Position numbers and translations under genes: made by a program. A DNA stretch of 64,000 nucleotides from sequence record MN106245.1; one strand, 5' to 3'. Positions 1,115 to 33,706 of the stretch are shown in pieces; within the stretch, counting starts at the first letter, position 1; each line of letters begins with the position of its first letter. A model generated the notes under the pieces. It was given only the letters and a program-made list of their open reading frames with translations. It was not told the DNA's origin and did not search any database. Origin of the DNA: Klebsiella phage EI.

Positions 1115-1660
1115 TTATAAATTAAAAATATCAAACTTTGGCCTATATTTGTCTTCGAATTTTTTAAATACTTCTGAATTGTTCAGATTAATACATTTAA
1201 TACCATACTTTTTAGCTATATCAACTGCAACTCTAGTTCCGCCTTGAACTCTGCCATTTCTAACCGGGGCCCAGTATAAAACTAAATCCACAGGGTTTTG
1301 ACATGATAATCCAAAAACTTGACATGCATTACGAGCAAACAACTTTCTAACTATATCTGAGCAATTTTCCCAGTACGAGGTAACTGATTGGGCTATTCTA
1401 TAACTAGCTGTTTGAACGTCCACTGGTAAGTTTTCAAAACTTACAACCCCTAAGCCAACAAAATGGCCACAGAACCCGTTGTAAGGTATTATCCTCAGAG
1501 ATTTAGACCTATCATATTTTGCCAGCCAAGCTTCATCTGAACCAGGCGCTCCGCCACTATAAGCTAAATATCCTTTATTTGAAAAGTTTTCACCTATAGA
1601 TGTCATCAAATCAAGAACTTTGCGGGGCGCCTTTCGAGAACCAATCAGCGCCACTCTCAT
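1115..1660 (-). CDS. SLOG/DprA(Smf)-like Rossmann-fold protein (accessory, not in T4)
   Basis: 181 aa. It carries an N-terminal IGSRKAP..(20 aa)..SGGAPGSDEAW motif pair resembling the DprA/LOG (SLOG) nucleotide-binding fold. It lies between gene 24 and rnlB, which are adjacent in T4. Confidence 0.45.
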   Translation of the reverse strand: MRVALIGSRKAPRKVLDLMTSIGENFSNKGYLAYSGGAPGSDEAWLAKYDRSKSLRIIPYNGFCGHFVGLGVVSFENLPVDVQTASYRIAQSVTSYWENCSDIVRKLFARNACQVFGLSCQNPVDLVLYWAPVRNGRVQGGTRVAVDIAKKYGIKCINLNNSEVFKKFEDKYRPKFDIFNL

Positions 1661-2658
1661 TAATTACTTACCAATTCAAACCACGCCGGACGAAGCACGT
1701 CTTGTATCAGCTTAGTAATTTCTTTCTTCACGATATCAGGCTGTTCTGCTTGAATGACTTCAAGACCTTCTCGTTCAGCTTCAATAAGGATATCTTGAAC
1801 TGTTAAGCCCATAACCTTTCCAAAGTCTTTAGGACCAACCTTACCGATCTTACTAATAACGTTGTTCACACGCTGAATAGTAACGTATTCAGAGAATTTC
1901 TGCAGAACGTCTTGGTCAATTTCACTCAGAACAGCTTTAGGCTTAATAGGCTTATCAGATTTAGCTTTTTCGCTGAACTTAGAGTTCTTACACTTGATAG
2001 CCACACGACTGCCGTTAGCCAGGAACCGTGGATAATTAGGTTTCAGTACATAGCCTTCAGCCGTATTATCGGTGGCTTCTTCAGCCGGCCAGATGCGGGT
2101 ATTAGCATTTCTGAGGTCTACTTCTGCGGCTTCGTTGTAACGATTAACGTTAATCTGGAACTCATTAGGCAGTTTAATCAGTTCATCAAATGAACCACGA
2201 CCCATCAGAGGTGCAACCTTGAAACCAAAGGTGCAACACATCTGTTCCATCATAAAATCATCTACAAATTGATGAGTACCTTTATCGGTTTTAACCAAGA
2301 TATCAAAGACATAGAAATCTTTCTCGCCGTAATCAACACCTTTCTGGATACCGCCACCAGCGAATTCACCGAAGATCTGCATACTAGAGCCTTCTTTAAT
2401 TGTATTTTGTACGGCTTTAATAGAGTCGTTATATTTCTTTAAAATAACAGTGTACCCAAAGAAGTCTTCAGCTGGAAGAATAGGACCTGTGCGCTTCGCG
2501 CATGTGACTGCATCACGTTCAATGATAATAGAAAAGTTGGTACCATGAATCTTTTCACGTGCACACCAGCCTTCAGTTACATCATAGCCGTGGTGTCGAA
2601 TCTTTTCAATAAATTTATTATTGTAGTGGTTCTCAAGACTAGAATATTTCTCAAACAC
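1660..2658 (-). CDS. rnlB: RNA ligase 2
   Basis: Near-collinear with T4 Rnl2 ([66 protein letters not shown]). The ligase KxHGxN lysine motif is present. Confidence 0.9.
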
Positions 2659-3466: not shown

Positions 3467-4273
3467 TTATTCCAACATCAAGAGCGGACCGGTGAACAAA
3501 ACACGTCCATTTCTAGATTCTTGGACATCGACTTCAGGGTACTCTTCTAGCATTTTAGCCAGAGTATACCGATGCAGGTAATAATCACTGTCAGGGTCGT
3601 CGAGTTTCCAATCTTTGCCCTCAACAGTCATTCGCTGGATTTCATCCATTACCCACCATCCACACCGGATATAGGCTGTTCCACGGAACGGTAGAGGATG
3701 AATATATGGAAGTTCTCCGTCTGGCTCAGGGGCTACTCTTTTAGTAAAAGCAACAGCAATACCTTTAGTCGCGGTTCCATTATTATAATCCGGCGCAGAA
3801 ACCTTTACTTCACAATTAAGTGTGTAGCTAGTTTCCGCTGATTCAGTTAAGGTAATTGTTTTACCTGTTTGGCCTGCAATAACAGTAGTACCACGTTTCC
3901 ACACGTAAGCAATGCTTGCTCCAGCCGGCGCCCCGCTAACATCCGCTGTAACTACTTGAGATTGGCCAATTTCTTTAGAAACTGAAGTTGGGCTCAAAGT
4001 TAAAGTAATAGCAGGCATGGTTTTGTTCTTAACCGTCAGAGTAGTTTCTGCTTCGGCCGTTTCAGGATCGCCTTCAGCCGGAGTGACGGTAGCAACTACT
4101 TTAATAGTCTTACTACCTGCAGGTCCTGCAGCAACATACTTCATAGCTGCAGTAACAGAAGATTGCTTTACACCATTTACAGTCCACACAAATGATTCTG
4201 TACCTTCGACAGCAGCACCAGACGTGGTTGCAGTAAAATTAGTTGTGGCCCCAATGACTGCTGAAGCAGCCAA
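3467..4273 (-). CDS. hoc: Highly immunogenic outer capsid protein
   Basis: Thr/Ala/Val-rich Ig-like repeats followed by a C-terminal capsid-binding module. Position matches T4 hoc between rnlB and inh. Confidence 0.75.
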   Translation of the reverse strand: MAASAVIGATTNFTATTSGAAVEGTESFVWTVNGVKQSSVTAAMKYVAAGPAGSKTIKVVATVTPAEGDPETAEAETTLTVKNKTMPAITLTLSPTSVSKEIGQSQVVTADVSGAPAGASIAYVWKRGTTVIAGQTGKTITLTESAETSYTLNCEVKVSAPDYNNGTATKGIAVAFTKRVAPEPDGELPYIHPLPFRGTAYIRCGWWVMDEIQRMTVEGKDWKLDDPDSDYYLHRYTLAKMLEEYPEVDVQESRNGRVLFTGPLLMLE

Positions 4274-23299: not shown

Positions 23300-23631
23300 A
23301 CTTCTACCTTAATAAAGTTAAAGCGAACAGTGTATGCAGGTTTACCTTCAATTTCAGTAAAGTCTTTTACTTCACGTAGATAAACTACATCCGGATTAAA
23401 TTTCACGATCTCAGAAACCAGGTGATCCAGATCCTGGGCCTTGAAAGATGCAATATCAACTTTGTAACGCTCACCACGTTTTATAGTTTGTACAGAAAAC
23501 GAAGGAGCGCCGATAACAATTACATTAATACCAGCGGCTTTAAGCATAGATGCAAATTCTTCAGTTGCATCCACAGGCTCTGGCATGGGCGGATTAATAT
23601 TTACGACAGAGTCGAATTCGTTAAGATTCAT
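23296..23631 (-). CDS. Hypothetical protein (31.2-like)
   Basis: 111-aa ORF; ATGA coupling to cd. Confidence 0.4.
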   Translation of the reverse strand: MNLNEFDSVVNINPPMPEPVDATEEFASMLKAAGINVIVIGAPSFSVQTIKRGERYKVDIASFKAQDLDHLVSEIVKFNPDVVYLREVKDFTEIEGKPAYTVRFNFIKVEV

Positions 23632-24191
23632 TATTCACCACAAAAATTACGAATCTGTTCCCAGTTCAGAGAGTTAAGATTCTTACGGTTATATTCAATA
23701 ACTTCAATTCCGGCTTCAACTAGAATATCGGCCCAGTCATCAGGAGAGCGATCATAGCGCTCTGCATAAACAACTTTTTTAATACCTGACTGAGAAATAG
23801 CTTTAGTACAATCAGGGCAAGGAGACGCGGTGCAATACAGCGTAGAGCCTTCAATTGAAGAACCTTTACGGGCCGCGAACAAAATAGCGTTCAGTTCGGC
23901 ATGGATTTCATTTTTAGAAGACCATTCACTATGTGCAGGTCTGTGTTCTTTAGCCAAAACCACTCGGCCACCTTTACCTGAAATTCGCCCAGACCCAGAA
24001 TTAGGAATAAACCTGGTCCAACCTTGCTGTGCAGCATGGTCACAACAGTTAGTTCCACCAGCCGGAGAACCGTTATACCCTGTAGAAATGATGCGACCAT
24101 CTTTTTCGATAACCGCACCTACTTTCCAAGAGCAACACTTTGATTCTTGGGAAATCAGATACGCGATTTGAAGATACGTAGCAGCCCTCAT
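23631..24191 (-). CDS. cd: dCMP deaminase
   Basis: Cytidine/dCMP deaminase zinc motifs H(A)E...PCxxC (HAELNAILFAA, SPCPDCTKAI) and an allosteric-site region. 186 aa. Confidence 0.9.
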   Translation of the reverse strand: MRAATYLQIAYLISQESKCCSWKVGAVIEKDGRIISTGYNGSPAGGTNCCDHAAQQGWTRFIPNSGSGRISGKGGRVVLAKEHRPAHSEWSSKNEIHAELNAILFAARKGSSIEGSTLYCTASPCPDCTKAISQSGIKKVVYAERYDRSPDDWADILVEAGIEVIEYNRKNLNSLNWEQIRNFCGE

Positions 24192-24194
24192 TTT

Positions 24195-24416
24195 TTATTT
24201 CCTCAGTTTACAATTATCATAGTGCCATCGAACGGCAGTAGCTTTATTACATATTTTACCACAATGCGGGCAAGGAGGAACTTTAGCTTTAGGAACACCT
24301 TTTAATTTTTCAGAGATGGCAGCTTTTTGACTCTCAGAATTCGGTATTCCTGTCCGTGTAGCACATTTGGCTCTAAGAACTGGATTCTTCATTCTATCTC
24401 TTTGAGCTTTTGCCAT
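24195..24416 (-). CDS. NUMOD3 + Cys4 zinc-finger DNA-binding module (C-terminal part of the adjacent HNH homing endonuclease, separate frame)
   Basis: Contains NUMOD3-like repeats (GIPNSESQKAAISEKLKG) and CPHCGK...WHYDNCK. The same finger type appears at the C-terminus of the nrdB-intron endonuclease. Confidence 0.55.
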   Translation of the reverse strand: MAKAQRDRMKNPVLRAKCATRTGIPNSESQKAAISEKLKGVPKAKVPPCPHCGKICNKATAVRWHYDNCKLRK

Positions 24417-24451
24417 TTTGGCTTTAGTCTCTTCAGAACGAGGAACTCCTT

Positions 24452-24763
24452 TTAATTTTCGGATAAAAGCTTTTTAGCTAAAGTGTAATCTCTAGAAGAG
24501 ACTTTGTATCTTTCAACCCCGTGCTCATTTATCCTAGAATTGCACATCATTAAAAAGGCATAAATCATCGGCCCTTCATAAATTTTAGCTAATAATTTGT
24601 GAGCTAAAAAGTGTTCTCTTCCTGTTAAATCGACTATGTTGGATTTGTCGTCAGAACCTCCCATAGACTTAGGGAGTATATGATGAGATTCTGTATACCC
24701 AGAAACTTCTTTTCTGAGTGAGGCCTTTGCCATTAAGGCCTCATAAGCTTTTCTATAGTCCAT
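24452..24763 (-). CDS. HNH homing endonuclease, catalytic domain
   Basis: ESHHILPKSMGGSDDKSNIVDLTGREHFLAH is an H-N-H motif. It overlaps the DAHP synthase stop by 11 nt. It ends at TAA just after an in-phase AAA-AAG, and the -1 frame continues into the ORF at 24195..24416. Confidence 0.7.
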   Translation of the reverse strand: MDYRKAYEALMAKASLRKEVSGYTESHHILPKSMGGSDDKSNIVDLTGREHFLAHKLLAKIYEGPMIYAFLMMCNSRINEHGVERYKVSSRDYTLAKKLLSEN

Positions 24764-25742
24764 TCAGATTACGGAGAACCATTTCAGTGGTTTCCCAGCC
24801 AATACACGGGTCAGTAATTGACACGCCATATTCAAGGTCTGTAGAAATCTTTTGATTACCTTGTTTAAGATTAGATTCTAACATAATTCCTCGAACGTTA
24901 GCCAATTCTGCTGCTTCAGCACAAACTGCAACCTGGTTCAAGAAAGAACCTTGGGCGTTAGCATGAGAGCAATCAACCATCAAGTATTGGTTAACGCCTG
25001 CCTTCTGTGCCTGGGCGATAGCATCAAAGACTGATTCTTTATCGTAGTTAGTTCCTTCGGAACCGCCACGCAGAACAATATGAGTGCTCTTGTTACCTGG
25101 TGCTGAGACGATACCGACTACACCGTTTTGGTCCATACCCATATAGTGGTGTGGGAACGCAGCCGATTGCATAGCGTCAGTAGCAACCTTAATAGAGCCA
25201 TTTGTCCCGTTCTTAAAACCGACAGTCATTGGCAGACCTGAAGCAATTTCACGATGAGTCTGTGATTCGGTAGTGCGAGCACCGATTGCAACCCAAGAGA
25301 AAATACCAGACAGATATTTGATAGTGAACGGATCAAGAACTTCTGTTGCCAGTGGTAAACCCATTCGCAAAAGCTTGCGACATAAGGTGCGAGCAATACC
25401 CAGCCCAGTATTAATTTCAAATGAACCATCTAAGAACGGGTCATTGATAAGACCTTTCCAACCGACAGTTGTACGAGGTTTTTCAAAATAAACACGCATA
25501 CAAAGCAGAAGATTAGGAAGTTCTTTTTGGAGTTCAGCCAGGCGCTCGCCATAATCAACTGCAGCAACTACGTCATGGATTGAACAAGGCCCTACTACAA
25601 CCAGACGGCGTTTATCGCGCCCAGTCATAATCTTATCGATTTCTTGGCGGTGTAAACTGACTTGATTTTGCAGCTCTGGAGAAATCCTACAACGACGCTC
25701 AAGTTCAGCCGGGCTTATCATTCTTTCAATTAAAGGTCTCAT
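24753..25742 (-). CDS. aroF: 3-deoxy-D-arabino-heptulosonate-7-phosphate (DAHP) synthase, class I-alpha (AroF/AroG-like)
   Basis: Near-collinear with E. coli AroF/AroG (RLLVVVGPCSIHD, MRVYFEKPRTTVGWKGLINDP, AIGARTTESQTHRE.ASGL, VGFKNGT.G, IVLRGG, DCSHANA, DPCIGWE). Good AAGGAA RBS. Confidence 0.9.
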   Translation of the reverse strand: MRPLIERMISPAELERRCRISPELQNQVSLHRQEIDKIMTGRDKRRLVVVGPCSIHDVVAAVDYGERLAELQKELPNLLLCMRVYFEKPRTTVGWKGLINDPFLDGSFEINTGLGIARTLCRKLLRMGLPLATEVLDPFTIKYLSGIFSWVAIGARTTESQTHREIASGLPMTVGFKNGTNGSIKVATDAMQSAAFPHHYMGMDQNGVVGIVSAPGNKSTHIVLRGGSEGTNYDKESVFDAIAQAQKAGVNQYLMVDCSHANAQGSFLNQVAVCAEAAELANVRGIMLESNLKQGNQKISTDLEYGVSITDPCIGWETTEMVLRNLNGL

Positions 25743-25771
25743 ATGGTTCCTTACTTACATTATTCTCCAGT

Positions 25772-25787
25772 AAGAGCCGAAGCCCTT
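25772..25787 (-). terminator. UUCG tetraloop hairpin (with G-U wobble) upstream of aroF
   Basis: The minus strand reads AAGGGC-UUCG-GCUCUU. Confidence 0.4.
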
Positions 25788-26022
25788 AGAAAGCATATAC
25801 TGAGGTAGATTGAATATGACTATTAGGCAATAGCTCAATCAAGTAGTACTCTGACTTGAAACCTTTAACGGTAAATAGATAAGACGCAGGTGTTTCCTGC
25901 GTCACATTTAGCTTTGCGCTTGGGTTACGTTCAGATATCTTATTAATCAAAGATTGAGCAAACTTAGGAATTAGCTCGGCAAACTCTGAAGTTGTGAAGG
26001 TCTTATCACTGTACATAAACAT
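25786..26022 (-). CDS. Hypothetical protein (cd.x-like)
   Basis: 78-aa ORF. Confidence 0.35.
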   Translation of the reverse strand: MFMYSDKTFTTSEFAELIPKFAQSLINKISERNPSAKLNVTQETPASYLFTVKGFKSEYYLIELLPNSHIQSTSVYAF

Positions 26023-26509: not shown

Positions 26510-26667
26510 ATCATTTTCCTCAAGTACAAGTAGACTGGAAGTACATCATATCATGCCTTCCAGCCGTTGTAAACAGCTAGAAATCTTTCCACTTTCGGCC
26601 TTGCTGCCAGTCTGGGTGATTCAATCTTGGGTCATTAGGATCTGTGGTAGAAGACTTCTCTCCGGTT

Positions 26668-27262
26668 CTAGAAATGAGCCATTTTTCTAGATTTAGCAAT
26701 TTCAGAATATTTCTTTTTAGCTTCATCAGTTCTTATTTTACCTGTGTTGGCTTCAGAGATTCTAGCGCTCCACTGCTTAATAGCAGATTCACTCATAAAA
26801 TCTTTTACATTTTTACCGAACATAGGGTTAGAAGAACCTTCAAAGGACCCACCTCGTTCTAATCTAGTATCTCTGGATTTTAGCCCATGCCCCGGAAGTT
26901 TTTTACCTTTTATCCAGGGTTCTGCACCTGAAGCGTATCGAGCCCTTTTGGCTTTTTGATATTTTACGAGAAGTTTCTTCACTAGAATTGTTGTTAAGCC
27001 CGTTATCGTTAATAAAATCCCAGCCGCCTTCTCCACCAGGCTTTAAGTTGTAGTTAGTATCTAAGCTAACAAACTGCTCGGTTACTAAGTCTTTTTCAAG
27101 AGAATAAGCTTCTTCTTTCGTATCGAAGATTGCTAAAATCTCTTTAACAAAGGAAGATTTACCGTACTTGGCTTCAGCATTCTTAAATGCTGTCCCAGAC
27201 CCTAAATAAGAATCGTTCTCTTCTAATGTCTTGTGAACACCGATGTAAATTTTGTTATTCAC
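26668..27262 (-). pseudogene. GIY-YIG (Seg-like) homing endonuclease split into two overlapping frames
   Basis: The N-terminal ORF (27262..26903) has GIY-YIG-like KIYIGVH...YLGSG and a NUMOD3 motif (SSEETSRKISKSQKG). The C-terminal ORF (27036..26668) is in the +1 frame and carries further NUMOD-like repeats (NPMFGKN, SESAIKQWSARISEANTGK). The overlap runs through A5/A4/G3 homopolymers. Confidence 0.55.
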
Positions 27263-27353
27263 AAAGACATGTTGTTTTATATACCGTATGTTTTTCCATA
27301 AACACCTCTAATGTTATAAAGGTATTTATTAAGTAAACTACGGTGATTTCTAA

Positions 27354-31976: not shown

Positions 31977-33066
31977 CGTTATGTTCGATTGAGCTCGCTA
32001 ATTCTCAACCCGTTCTCTTATGAACTGCTGCATATTACTATGCAGACCAGACTATATCACAATCCCGGAGGGATTCTCCCCATTTCGAGTCGCTTGACCC
32101 TACGTCCGAAGACTAGTCGTTGAACCTTGTTTTGCAATTGTCGCCGTGCCATCGTTTATATGTTGATGGTGATAAATCTTTCTTATCACAGTATGGACAA
32201 TTCAATTGAATTCTATTTGGATTTAATTTACATCTGTCATTATGTTTTAGATAAAACCCAGGACCTTTACCAATGTGACCACAAAAATCACATGTGATTT
32301 CTTTTTGTGCAGGATGGGTCCAGTTCTTAACCATTTCTAATGTTTTTGCTGATGTTCTTTTCTTATGGTCTTCTGATAAGAAATGATGTGAACCGTCATT
32401 TACCCGTTTTGATTGGGTTTCTGACTGCATTTTACCACCGCAAAATACATGGGTACCTTCTTTTATAGCTGCAATATTACGTTCTTTAACTTTTGCAATA
32501 TGCTCAGCTTGTTGAAAATTATGTATACCTAATGCAACTCTATTTAAATTAGATTTACGCTGTATTTCACCATCTAAAAGATGAAATGTACCATTTTCTA
32601 TCTTAGATTTAATAGAGGCAATATTTTTAGCTCGTACTTCAGGGATATTAAAAATCTGAATTTCTCTAGATTTTGCGGCTTTAGAAGCTAATTCAGAAAT
32701 TTCTTCAGGAGAATATTTCATTCTAAGCTTTATAGCATGACAAGCCTGGTAATCTTTTTGAGCTAAATGTATATCATAATGTTCCTGTATAGAAAGGCAC
32801 ATCAAATTATCTAAATCATTATTTTCACGGTTACCGTCTTTATGATGGATTTCGTATGTTCTTCCATCAGAATCTTTAGGTATAGGTCCGTTAGCATCTA
32901 TCCAAATTTTTCTATAGTTTCAATTGTGCATCCTCTTAAAAGCATAATCATTTTATATTATACTAATTAAAGGTGCAAGCAAAACCTTGGCTGCTAGTTT
33001 TCCATAAAGGACTTTCCAGCAATTAAAGGAGTTTTCGATAAACGTTACCGTTTAAAGGCGCATTTT
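31977..33066 (-). other. Group I self-splicing intron in nrdB (~1090 nt) carrying an HNH homing-endonuclease ORF
   Basis: The reading frame breaks at an exon-terminal U. The 5' end reads TAAAATGCGCCTTTAAACGGTAACG... The 3' region (31985..32110) shares structured core/3'-end motifs with the td intron. The last nucleotide is G. Confidence 0.8.
32113..32931 (-). pseudogene. I-TevIII-like HNH homing endonuclease (intron ORF) with an in-frame TGA at codon 4
   Basis: Frame reads ATG CAC AAT TGA then NYRKIWIDANGPIPKDSDGRTYEIHHKDGNRENNDLDNL(M)CLSIQEHYDIH..., ending in two Cys4 fingers. The ORF-track ORF (32113..32805) starts only after the HNH His-His. Confidence 0.6.
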
Positions 33067-33706
33067 ACGCAAAAGATACATAAAAACGAATAGCTTCAAG
33101 AGCGTTCACTACATGCATGCAAAGGTACATTGCCTTCATCAGGTCATGCTTGGCTTGTTTAATCTCAATATTATCCGGATTAAAGCAACGTTCTTGAGCA
33201 TTCTGGTACCGACGATGGGCTTCAGTAACCGCATCATAGTAAACACCGATTGATTCAGCCCGTTTCATGATGGCTTTGTCGAGAACAATTTCGTCGAAGA
33301 CCTTAGCCGGATCAGTGAATAAGTTACGCATAATATGCGTATAAGAACGAGAGTGAATTGTTTCACTGAATGTCCAGGTCTGGAACCAAGTATCAAGGCT
33401 CGGATCAGAAATCAACGGGGCAAATACTGCTGAAGGGGCACGGCCTTGAATCGAATCGAGAAGACTTTGATACTTCAGGTTATCTGTAAACAGGTTCTGT
33501 TGGTGCTCTGGCAGCTTTTCAAATTGCCCACGGTCCATCATTAGGTTGACTTCTTCCGGACGCCAAAAGAATGACAGCTGCTTTTCAATAAGGTCTTCAA
33601 AAACTTTATGTCGCTGCTGATCATATCGTGCAATGCCTAGTCCTGAACCAAGGAACATCGGTTCGGTCATGATATCTACTTGCTTGGTGTTAAAAACTGT
33701 TGTCAT
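33067..33706 (-). CDS. nrdB: Ribonucleotide reductase small subunit NrdB, exon 1
   Basis: N-terminal di-iron R2 region (…FWRPEEV…, TFSETIHSRSYTHI…, AIRFYVSFA). Its 'stop' TAA is the intron start. Confidence 0.85.

Follow-up and report, generated by a model that had tools for sequence, protein, structure and literature searches.

A MobE-type homing endonuclease gene of Klebsiella phage EI, very probably interrupted by the loss of a single base and not by programmed frameshifting

When a gene is split between two reading frames close to a pair of lysine codons that might invite the ribosome to slip, is the split a recoding signal or an accident? This question is raised by a locus of Klebsiella phage EI, a T4-like Marfavirus, lying in the 64,000-nucleotide (nt) stretch of sequence record MN106245.1 that was analysed here and is called the window. 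Read on the minus strand, positions 24195..24763 hold a whole MobE-like, free-standing HNH homing endonuclease gene, which would comprise 189 codons if intact and which in EI lies in two frames. The nuclease half is a first open reading frame of 103 amino acids (ORF1, 24452..24763) that ends at a premature TAA (24454..24452), and the DNA-binding half follows in a -1-frame stretch (24195..24473), within which a second frame of 73 amino acids has been called (ORF2, 24416..24195). A sequence-only reading of this DNA had proposed that ribosomes move to the -1 frame at an AAA AAG hexamer near the end of ORF1, as in dnaX and IS911, and had named a decayed gene as its alternative and an erroneous base call in the A run as a caveat. 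As argued below, the comparison of sequences strongly favours the last two over a programmed shift, with the frame break in EI as a non-programmed one-base loss in a MobE-type gene inserted between aroF and cd.

The layout described by that earlier reading was confirmed by direct inspection. The 3′ end of ORF1 runs ...TTA GCT AAA AAG CTT TTA TCC GAA AAT TAA, and the -1 frame across it (K AFIRKLKGVPRSEETKAK MAKAQ...) is free of stops into ORF2 and through to 24195. This frame does not open three codons before the hexamer, as had been stated, given that its last stop is a TAA at 24476..24474 (GC-TAA-AA) that overlaps the hexamer itself. The idea that the two frames belong together also holds: ORF1 and ORF2 are, judging by homology, two parts of one HNH-NUMOD3-zinc-finger homing endonuclease gene, because the Pfam NUMOD3 match (residues 108-128) is found only in the joined protein, where it starts upstream of the ATG of ORF2. 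When the base that EI lacks is restored, a profile search matches the protein to the family phrog_655 (‘homing endonuclease’) in one stretch over residues 1-186 (E=1.2e-54), with ORF1 by itself reaching E=2e-42. In GenBank, the two pieces are listed as separate EI products, QEM42435.1 (93 amino acids, ‘homing endonuclease’) and QEM42434.1 (73 amino acids).

The cause of the break becomes visible in the close orthologues of the gene. Nine independent orthologous DNAs, about 99% identical, were compared, three of them from GenBank phages and six from read-based Logan assemblies of six public sequencing runs. The GenBank carriers are MY02 (WVW37186.1), vB_Kpn_P545 (QGZ15230.1) and vB_KpnM_Biddle_MM4 (XNS48787.1, ‘homing endonuclease’), each with one contiguous coding sequence (CDS) annotated and with 98.5-98.9% nucleotide identity to EI; the intact CDS has 570 nt and is also present in the Logan assemblies, all with the order aroF, one ORF, cd. 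The segment GCT AAA AAG CTT TTA TCC G is identical in 9/9 of these DNAs and is followed by a run of five A residues (A5), or by A6 in two Logan assemblies that also bear a G-to-A change. In EI the run is A4 (24456..24459). The four-way alignment of EI, MY02, P545 and Biddle_MM4 contains no other indel in the gene, the shared GCTAAAAAGCTTTTATCCG being followed by AAAAA in the relatives and by AAAA in EI, and against Biddle_MM4 the lesion is the only gap over the 4.6 kb around the gene. Through the loss of one A, the GAA AAA TTA AAA of the orthologues becomes GAA AAT TAA, the stop lands after codon 103, and the DNA-binding half is thrown into the -1 frame. The gene is thus not split exactly at the hexamer, as had been claimed, but 11-14 nt downstream of it.

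The same nine DNAs are contiguous and remain in the zero frame throughout, reading ...LAKKLLSEKLKGVPRSEE..., so that the uninterrupted two-domain frame is missing from EI alone among them. At the protein level, the ten other members of the 90% identity cluster are all contiguous, with 179 or 189 amino acids (...KKLLSEKLKGVP...), nine of them reading ...LAKKLLSEKLKGVPRSEE... and one LLSKK, and the split products of 93 and 73 amino acids come only from EI, each on one contig. Beyond the indel, the EI gene carries a single unique amino-acid change (A76S) and no further damage. On this comparison, the native gene is read past the Lys-Lys pair without leaving the zero frame. A contiguous frame in homologues was the test that the sequence-only reading had named for itself, and its outcome goes against a programmed shift.

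More distant relatives tell us which feature of this region has been conserved. Contiguous homologues occur in Providencia phage PSTRCR_121 (65% identity), Klebsiella phage Phi_KR1 (60%) and phage JSE (44%), and the alignment passes through the position of the break in a single frame: LARKMISDKL in PSTRCR_121, LAKKLYALSR in Phi_KR1, QARVLISEQR in JSE and HAKKLNSQFR in T4 MobE. At the position of AAA AAG these sequences have CGT AAA, AAG AAA, AGG GTA or AAG AAG, and the hexamer is absent in all four. What has been kept are the zero-frame residues after the Lys pair (L-x-S-E/D, as LLSE, MISD or LISE), and not the hexamer. The in-phase AAA AAG of EI (Lys-Lys, 24470..24475, minus strand) is thus, by this comparison, a pair of ordinary codons rather than a conserved slippery site, and AAAAAG shows no excess in the window, where it occurs 74 times against 92 +/- 8 in shuffled sequences.

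Several features of the site do nonetheless recall recoding. The hexamer sits in the zero frame, as had been claimed, presenting AAA AAG to the shift-prone tRNA-Lys(UUU) in the manner of dnaX and IS911, and no stop interrupts the -1 frame between its opening inside the hexamer and the end of the DNA-binding half. The hexamer also provides the A-site tetramer A_AAG, the most shift-prone one in E. coli (PMC4066793), and a slip there would give a product scoring 186.1 bits on phrog_655, near the 187.5 bits of the restored protein. However, it resembles a shift motif of the dnaX/IS911 type only in part. The heptamer is U_AAA_AAG and not A_AAA_AAG, hence re-pairing in the P site would be imperfect, onto UAA. 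The two-frame layout exists in one record only: the nine orthologous DNAs read the same hexamer in frame, and the frame change of EI maps to a one-base deletion elsewhere. Moreover, direct reading of the intact orthologues indicates that a -1 slip at the hexamer would there meet a stop after 12 codons.

The elements that stimulate such shifts were also sought around the motif. No GGAG, GAGG or AGGA that could act as a Shine-Dalgarno-like (SD-like) element is present in the 20 nt upstream, TCTTCTAGAGATTACACTTTAGCT, a stimulator of this kind being expected some 10-14 nt ahead of the motif. The 90 nt downstream of the motif fold into a bulged hairpin (-18.5 kcal/mol, z=-2.1, 3/200 shuffles as stable), which starts 20 nt past the motif and is absent from the centroid in its 181-nt context (z=-0.7); the intact orthologues share this sequence unchanged. 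Neither the 90-nt nor the 181-nt fold contains a stem-loop or pseudoknot about 5-9 nt downstream, the sole hairpin being marginal and at the wrong distance, and in this the site again differs from dnaX and IS911. Because neither the hexamer nor the two-frame layout is conserved in homologues, programmed -1 frameshifting at AAA-AAG, which would deliver full-length enzyme and nuclease-only product in a set ratio, can be regarded as refuted, with a residual probability that is minute.

A looser version of this idea accepts that A4 is real and supposes that unprogrammed, ‘savior’ -1 slippage yields traces of a near-native enzyme, the result being an accidentally attenuated homing endonuclease. Slippage could involve tRNA-Lys at U_AAA_AAG, or the P-site tRNA-Asn moving from AAU to AAA while UAA occupies the A site. 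Both products would keep the phrog_655 score, with 188.3 bits for a slip at AAU-UAA, although these values differ from that of the restored protein by 1-2 bits, in the direction of the zero-frame LLSE reading, and the profile alone does not separate the junction variants. The shift window comprises just nine codons, the downstream hairpin would start about 5 nt past the UAA, and homing endonucleases are held at very low expression, as by the internal terminator of T4 mobE, so that traces of enzyme might matter. On the other side, unstimulated tetramers gave 0.15% frameshifting against a background of 0.11%, and the best V_VVA_AAG heptamers without stimulators about 0.3% (Sharma et al. 2014, PMC4066793); in view of these measurements, slippage at the EI site should, by analogy, stay at the background level of 0.1-0.3%. 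The hairpin is marginal, and the A4 allele is known from one contig only, exact-pattern scans of IMG/VR, JGI metagenomes and GTDB genomes having found neither A-run allele. The explanation also needs a real deletion, itself an evenly balanced matter. We therefore consider rescue of this kind very unlikely. Low-level incidental -1 slippage at U_AAA_AAG may still take place. None of the observations contradicts a non-programmed loss of one base.

Slippage of other kinds was considered and rejected, since runs of four or five A are too short for transcriptional slippage or phase variation.

Could the two pieces instead work as they are? A functional two-piece enzyme would consist of the 103-amino acid nuclease and a separately initiated 73-amino acid DNA-binding piece (ATG 24416), associating or acting in trans, and phage T4 offers a comparable split, MobE and NrdB.1, with a mobE that is genetically active (PMC2790892). 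In T4 (AF158101.6, region 1201..1901), mobE (141 amino acids) and nrdB.1 (83 amino acids, ‘hypothetical’) correspond in an alignment to the two ends, N- and C-terminal respectively, of a contiguous 215-amino acid protein of phage JSE, and a NUMOD3-like stretch (TGLRLTEETKHKISAATKGRAKSEET) is left stranded in the third frame between them. Judging from this alignment, T4 mobE/nrdB.1 is what is left of one JSE-like Mob endonuclease after two frameshifts in its A-rich linker region spread it over three frames; in the part of the MobE paper that was searched (PMC2790892) there is no mention of the two genes as remnants of one protein. The T4 precedent fits mutational decay of linkers and not recoding, and its two frameshifts and three frames speak of decay rather than design. 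Moreover, the break in EI leaves the nuclease piece with none of the NUMOD3 repeats, while T4 MobE retains one. The ATG of ORF2 falls midway through the first NUMOD3 repeat and has no good SD before it, and the split arrangement is not conserved in the 90% cluster. A working two-piece enzyme is accordingly barely credible, and all that is programmed or functionally maintained at this locus, taken together, has only a small probability.

If the break is a non-programmed loss of one base, did it occur in the phage or in its record? The surroundings of the gene bear on this point. In a survey of ORFs conserved in at least two other genomes, the EI window was compared with four relatives (MY02, Biddle_MM4, Marfa and HMGUkp2), and EI showed five frameshift-like junctions per 38.8 kb (at ~3500, 21381, 24458, 36745 and 38155), against zero in 40-66 kb of each of the four relatives. 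Local alignments reduced each junction to a change of one or two bases found only in EI, mostly in short homopolymers, and revealed two more such changes at 2906 and 38625. These EI-only indels, of which the one near 3500 lies at 3498-3500, break small ORFs that are intact in two to four relatives. A second homing endonuclease gene of the window, a seg-like GIY-YIG gene (27299..26577, minus strand) between pseT and the next small ORF, is also frameshifted; it is present only in EI among the Marfaviruses compared. It is 83% identical to a Seg-like CDS of Enterobacter phage EnC07, and three one-base insertions divide it into four frame segments, each otherwise intact.

The excess of frameshifts, the bias towards insertions in short runs and the otherwise undecayed state of the sequences suggest errors in the EI record, and real mutation sits poorly with the fact that four relatives of similar or greater divergence keep those ORFs intact and that the broken halves show no further decay. 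Purely random sequencing error, however, also has evidence against it, because at most one of the 7-10 EI-specific frameshifts falls in ORFs of at least 200 amino acids, which account for 56-58% of the region (P about 0.002-0.04). Such a scarcity could reflect selection acting on real mutations, or depositors who had corrected the well-known genes by hand. Reads or an independent assembly of EI were not found in the collections searched, including an exact contig look-up of the 73-amino acid product, and a literature search found no description of phage EI or of its sequencing platform. A homopolymer error in the deposited sequence, with an intact 189-amino acid enzyme in the real phage, appears about as probable as all other explanations combined, and a real, recent inactivating mutation that leaves EI with a decaying homing endonuclease gene follows with a chance just short of even. 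There is thus a slight lean to record error, and what sets EI apart is either a deposited sequence with many errors or a genome with an unusual number of mutations. The fallback and the caveat of the sequence-only reading, a decayed gene and a wrong base call, are in this way both preferred to the programmed shift, with near-equal odds between them.

Decay of homing endonuclease genes, as in the defective I-TevIII of T4 and in the sequence of gain, fixation and decay, offers a natural parallel for the possibility of a real mutation. As in those cases, a lesion in the EI lineage stands beside intact genes in close relatives, and the seg-like gene of the same window has also lost its frame. The parallel is limited by the fact that, bar the indel and A76S, the EI gene is undamaged, and that there would be no decay at all if the lesion were a sequencing error.

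Which kind of enzyme has been interrupted? In its domains, the gene is by sequence a MobE-type free-standing HNH homing endonuclease, in which an HNH nuclease at the N-terminus is followed by two NUMOD3 repeats and, at the C-terminus, by a CCHC finger. Its HNH catalytic motif (HHILPKSMGGSDDKSNIVDLTGREH, 24611..24685, minus strand) is intact and conserved in all the homologues aligned (T4 MobE, JSE, PSTRCR_121 and Phi_KR1), and in PDB 6me0_C, a group II intron maturase chain, it can be aligned with the HNH region; the Pfam HNH match is weak, at 18-20 bits under a cut-off of 21.4. The first NUMOD3 repeat (KGVPRSEETKAKMAKAQRDRM, 24390..24452, minus strand) straddles the ATG of ORF2, so that homology in the -1 frame reaches upstream of this ATG, and its Pfam score of 20.4 bits lies at the cut-off. 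A second NUMOD3-like repeat (TGIPNSESQKAAISEKLKG, 24297..24353, minus strand) was recognised in the alignment as a repetition of the SEKLKGVP signature. The zinc finger (CPHC-x12-H-x3-C, 24210..24272, minus strand) had been taken for a Cys4 type. Its ligands are C49, C52, H65 and C69 of ORF2, a CCHC set whose four columns every homologue keeps, T4 nrdB.1 among them, and the finger gives a weak zf-C2H2 match; the cysteine of ‘KIC’ is not conserved. The HNH motif, full-length similarity, NUMOD3 repeats with a finger, and a free-standing insertion between genes that is present or absent among close relatives are all found here, as in the Mob-type family of T4 MobE and phrog_655.

The closest described system is that of T4 MobE, taken with NrdB.1, and of its JSE counterpart. 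By tblastn, the EI protein is 45% identical to T4 mobE + nrdB.1 and 44% to JSE, similarity of about 45% that spans the whole length. The proteins begin alike (M-D/N-Y-x-K-x-Y), and they have in common the HNH motif, the NUMOD3 repeats and the CxxC...H...C finger at the C-terminus. Like the EI gene, T4 mobE is free-standing between two nucleotide-metabolism genes, its start overlaps or abuts the stop of the upstream gene, a hairpin lies some 20-27 nt inside its ORF, it is present or absent among close relatives, and in T4, too, the A-rich NUMOD3 linker has suffered frameshifts. The two differ in their sites, nrdA|nrdB in T4 and aroF|cd in EI, and presumably in their targets. They also differ in what is known of them, since nicking and homing have been demonstrated for T4 MobE (PMC2790892), whereas the EI gene is known from its sequence. 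The orthologues of MY02, P545 and Biddle_MM4 are, in comparison, the same gene at the same site with the same AAAAAG, and have A5 instead of A4, hence one protein of 189 amino acids.

The start of the gene deserves separate comment, as the annotations of EI, MY02 and Biddle_MM4 place it at the second ATG (M11, 24733), which gives 93 amino acids in EI and 179 in the relatives. The first ATG (24763) overlaps the aroF ORF (25742..24753) by 11 nt, and this overlap, noticed by the sequence-only reading, is real. For the nuclease, conservation points to the first ATG as the true start, since T4 MobE, JSE, PSTRCR_121 and Phi_KR1 all preserve residues 1-10, the N-terminus MDYRKAYEAL of EI aligning with MNYQKIYNDL of T4 MobE. 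The second ATG, which is preceded by GAGG and would abolish the overlap with aroF, was considered as the true start and rejected for the same conservation. A hairpin with a 9-bp stem and a 7-nt loop (24718..24744, minus strand) begins 19 nt past the nuclease AUG, with the GAGG in its stem and the second AUG in its loop, and it may sequester this internal start. Its position is analogous to that of the weak intrinsic terminator inside T4 mobE (PMC2790892), but it lacks the U tract of the T4 element; on the opposite strand, the hairpin has a terminator-like score.

How the gene came to this site can be read from genomes with and without it. Among the 23 Marfavirus records that match the region, the nuclease gene is present in three, and the other 20 have an empty site, aroF..CTGAAT|AACAAAGGCTAAAA-ATG(cd), which in Marfa and HMGUkp2 reads aroF...CTG AAT AAC AAA GGC TAA AA ATG(cd). 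The insertion begins directly past CTGAAT, and the ATG of the nuclease straddles the junction. The upstream neighbour, aroF (DAHP synthase, 24753..25742, minus strand, assigned from annotations and the empty-site comparison), had its 3′ end (24753..24770) rewritten by the insertion, so that AroF ends in ...RNLNGL* in genomes with the gene and in ...RNLNNKG* in those without it. The downstream neighbour, cd (dCMP deaminase, 23631..24191, minus strand), was compared through empty sites and identity windows; its first ~55 nt show eight differences between nuclease-containing and nuclease-free genomes. In 100-nt windows over 23400..25900, EI and MY02/P545 are 99-100% identical over the nuclease gene and on into cd for its first 100 nt (24100..24800), and 83-95% identical in the flanks. 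From these comparisons, a homing target or a co-conversion tract is probable at the 5′ end of cd, and an island of identity like this one would be expected if the gene had lately spread between genomes together with a short co-converted tract, such that the lineage appears to have been recently mobile among Marfaviruses.

By analogy with T4 MobE, the intact enzyme would, in a mixed infection, nick or cut close to the start of cd in genomes that lack the nuclease, and recombinational repair would then copy the nuclease gene and a short flanking tract into them. The sequence-only reading had taken the overlap with aroF as a physical tie between the endonuclease and that gene. The tie is not borne out, as aroF occurs without the nuclease in 20 genomes of Marfavirus. 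In PSTRCR_121 and Phi_KR1, a related gene immediately precedes cd, with aroF on its other side in the former and with no aroF in the latter; because of these two arrangements, the association of the nuclease is, as far as gene order tells, with cd and not with aroF.

Elsewhere in the window, at ~31977..33068, EI has an insertion of ~1.1 kb relative to MY02 inside nrdB, at a place where Biddle_MM4 has an ‘intron-like DNA endonuclease’ annotated. By analogy, EI presumably carries an nrdB group I intron with its own endonuclease.

The element described here is of a known kind, already annotated as a homing endonuclease in relatives of EI, and its lesson is mainly one of caution. An in-phase AAA-AAG beside a frame break resembles a recoding signal, and one comparison with orthologues settles the matter. 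In the Lys-rich, A-rich linkers of NUMOD3 proteins AAAAAG represents ordinary codons, and A runs are the place of one-base indels, whether real or artefactual. In annotation, QEM42435.1 and QEM42434.1 are best merged into a single, disrupted homing endonuclease gene, and the EI record as a whole is best regarded as frameshift-rich. If A4 were genuine and accompanied by slippage, the frameshift would act as an accidental attenuator of a toxic mobile nuclease, and the split of T4 mobE/nrdB.1 might follow the same logic. What is gained for the biology of these phages is the insertion site of a MobE-like lineage and its probable target region, at the 5′ end of cd.

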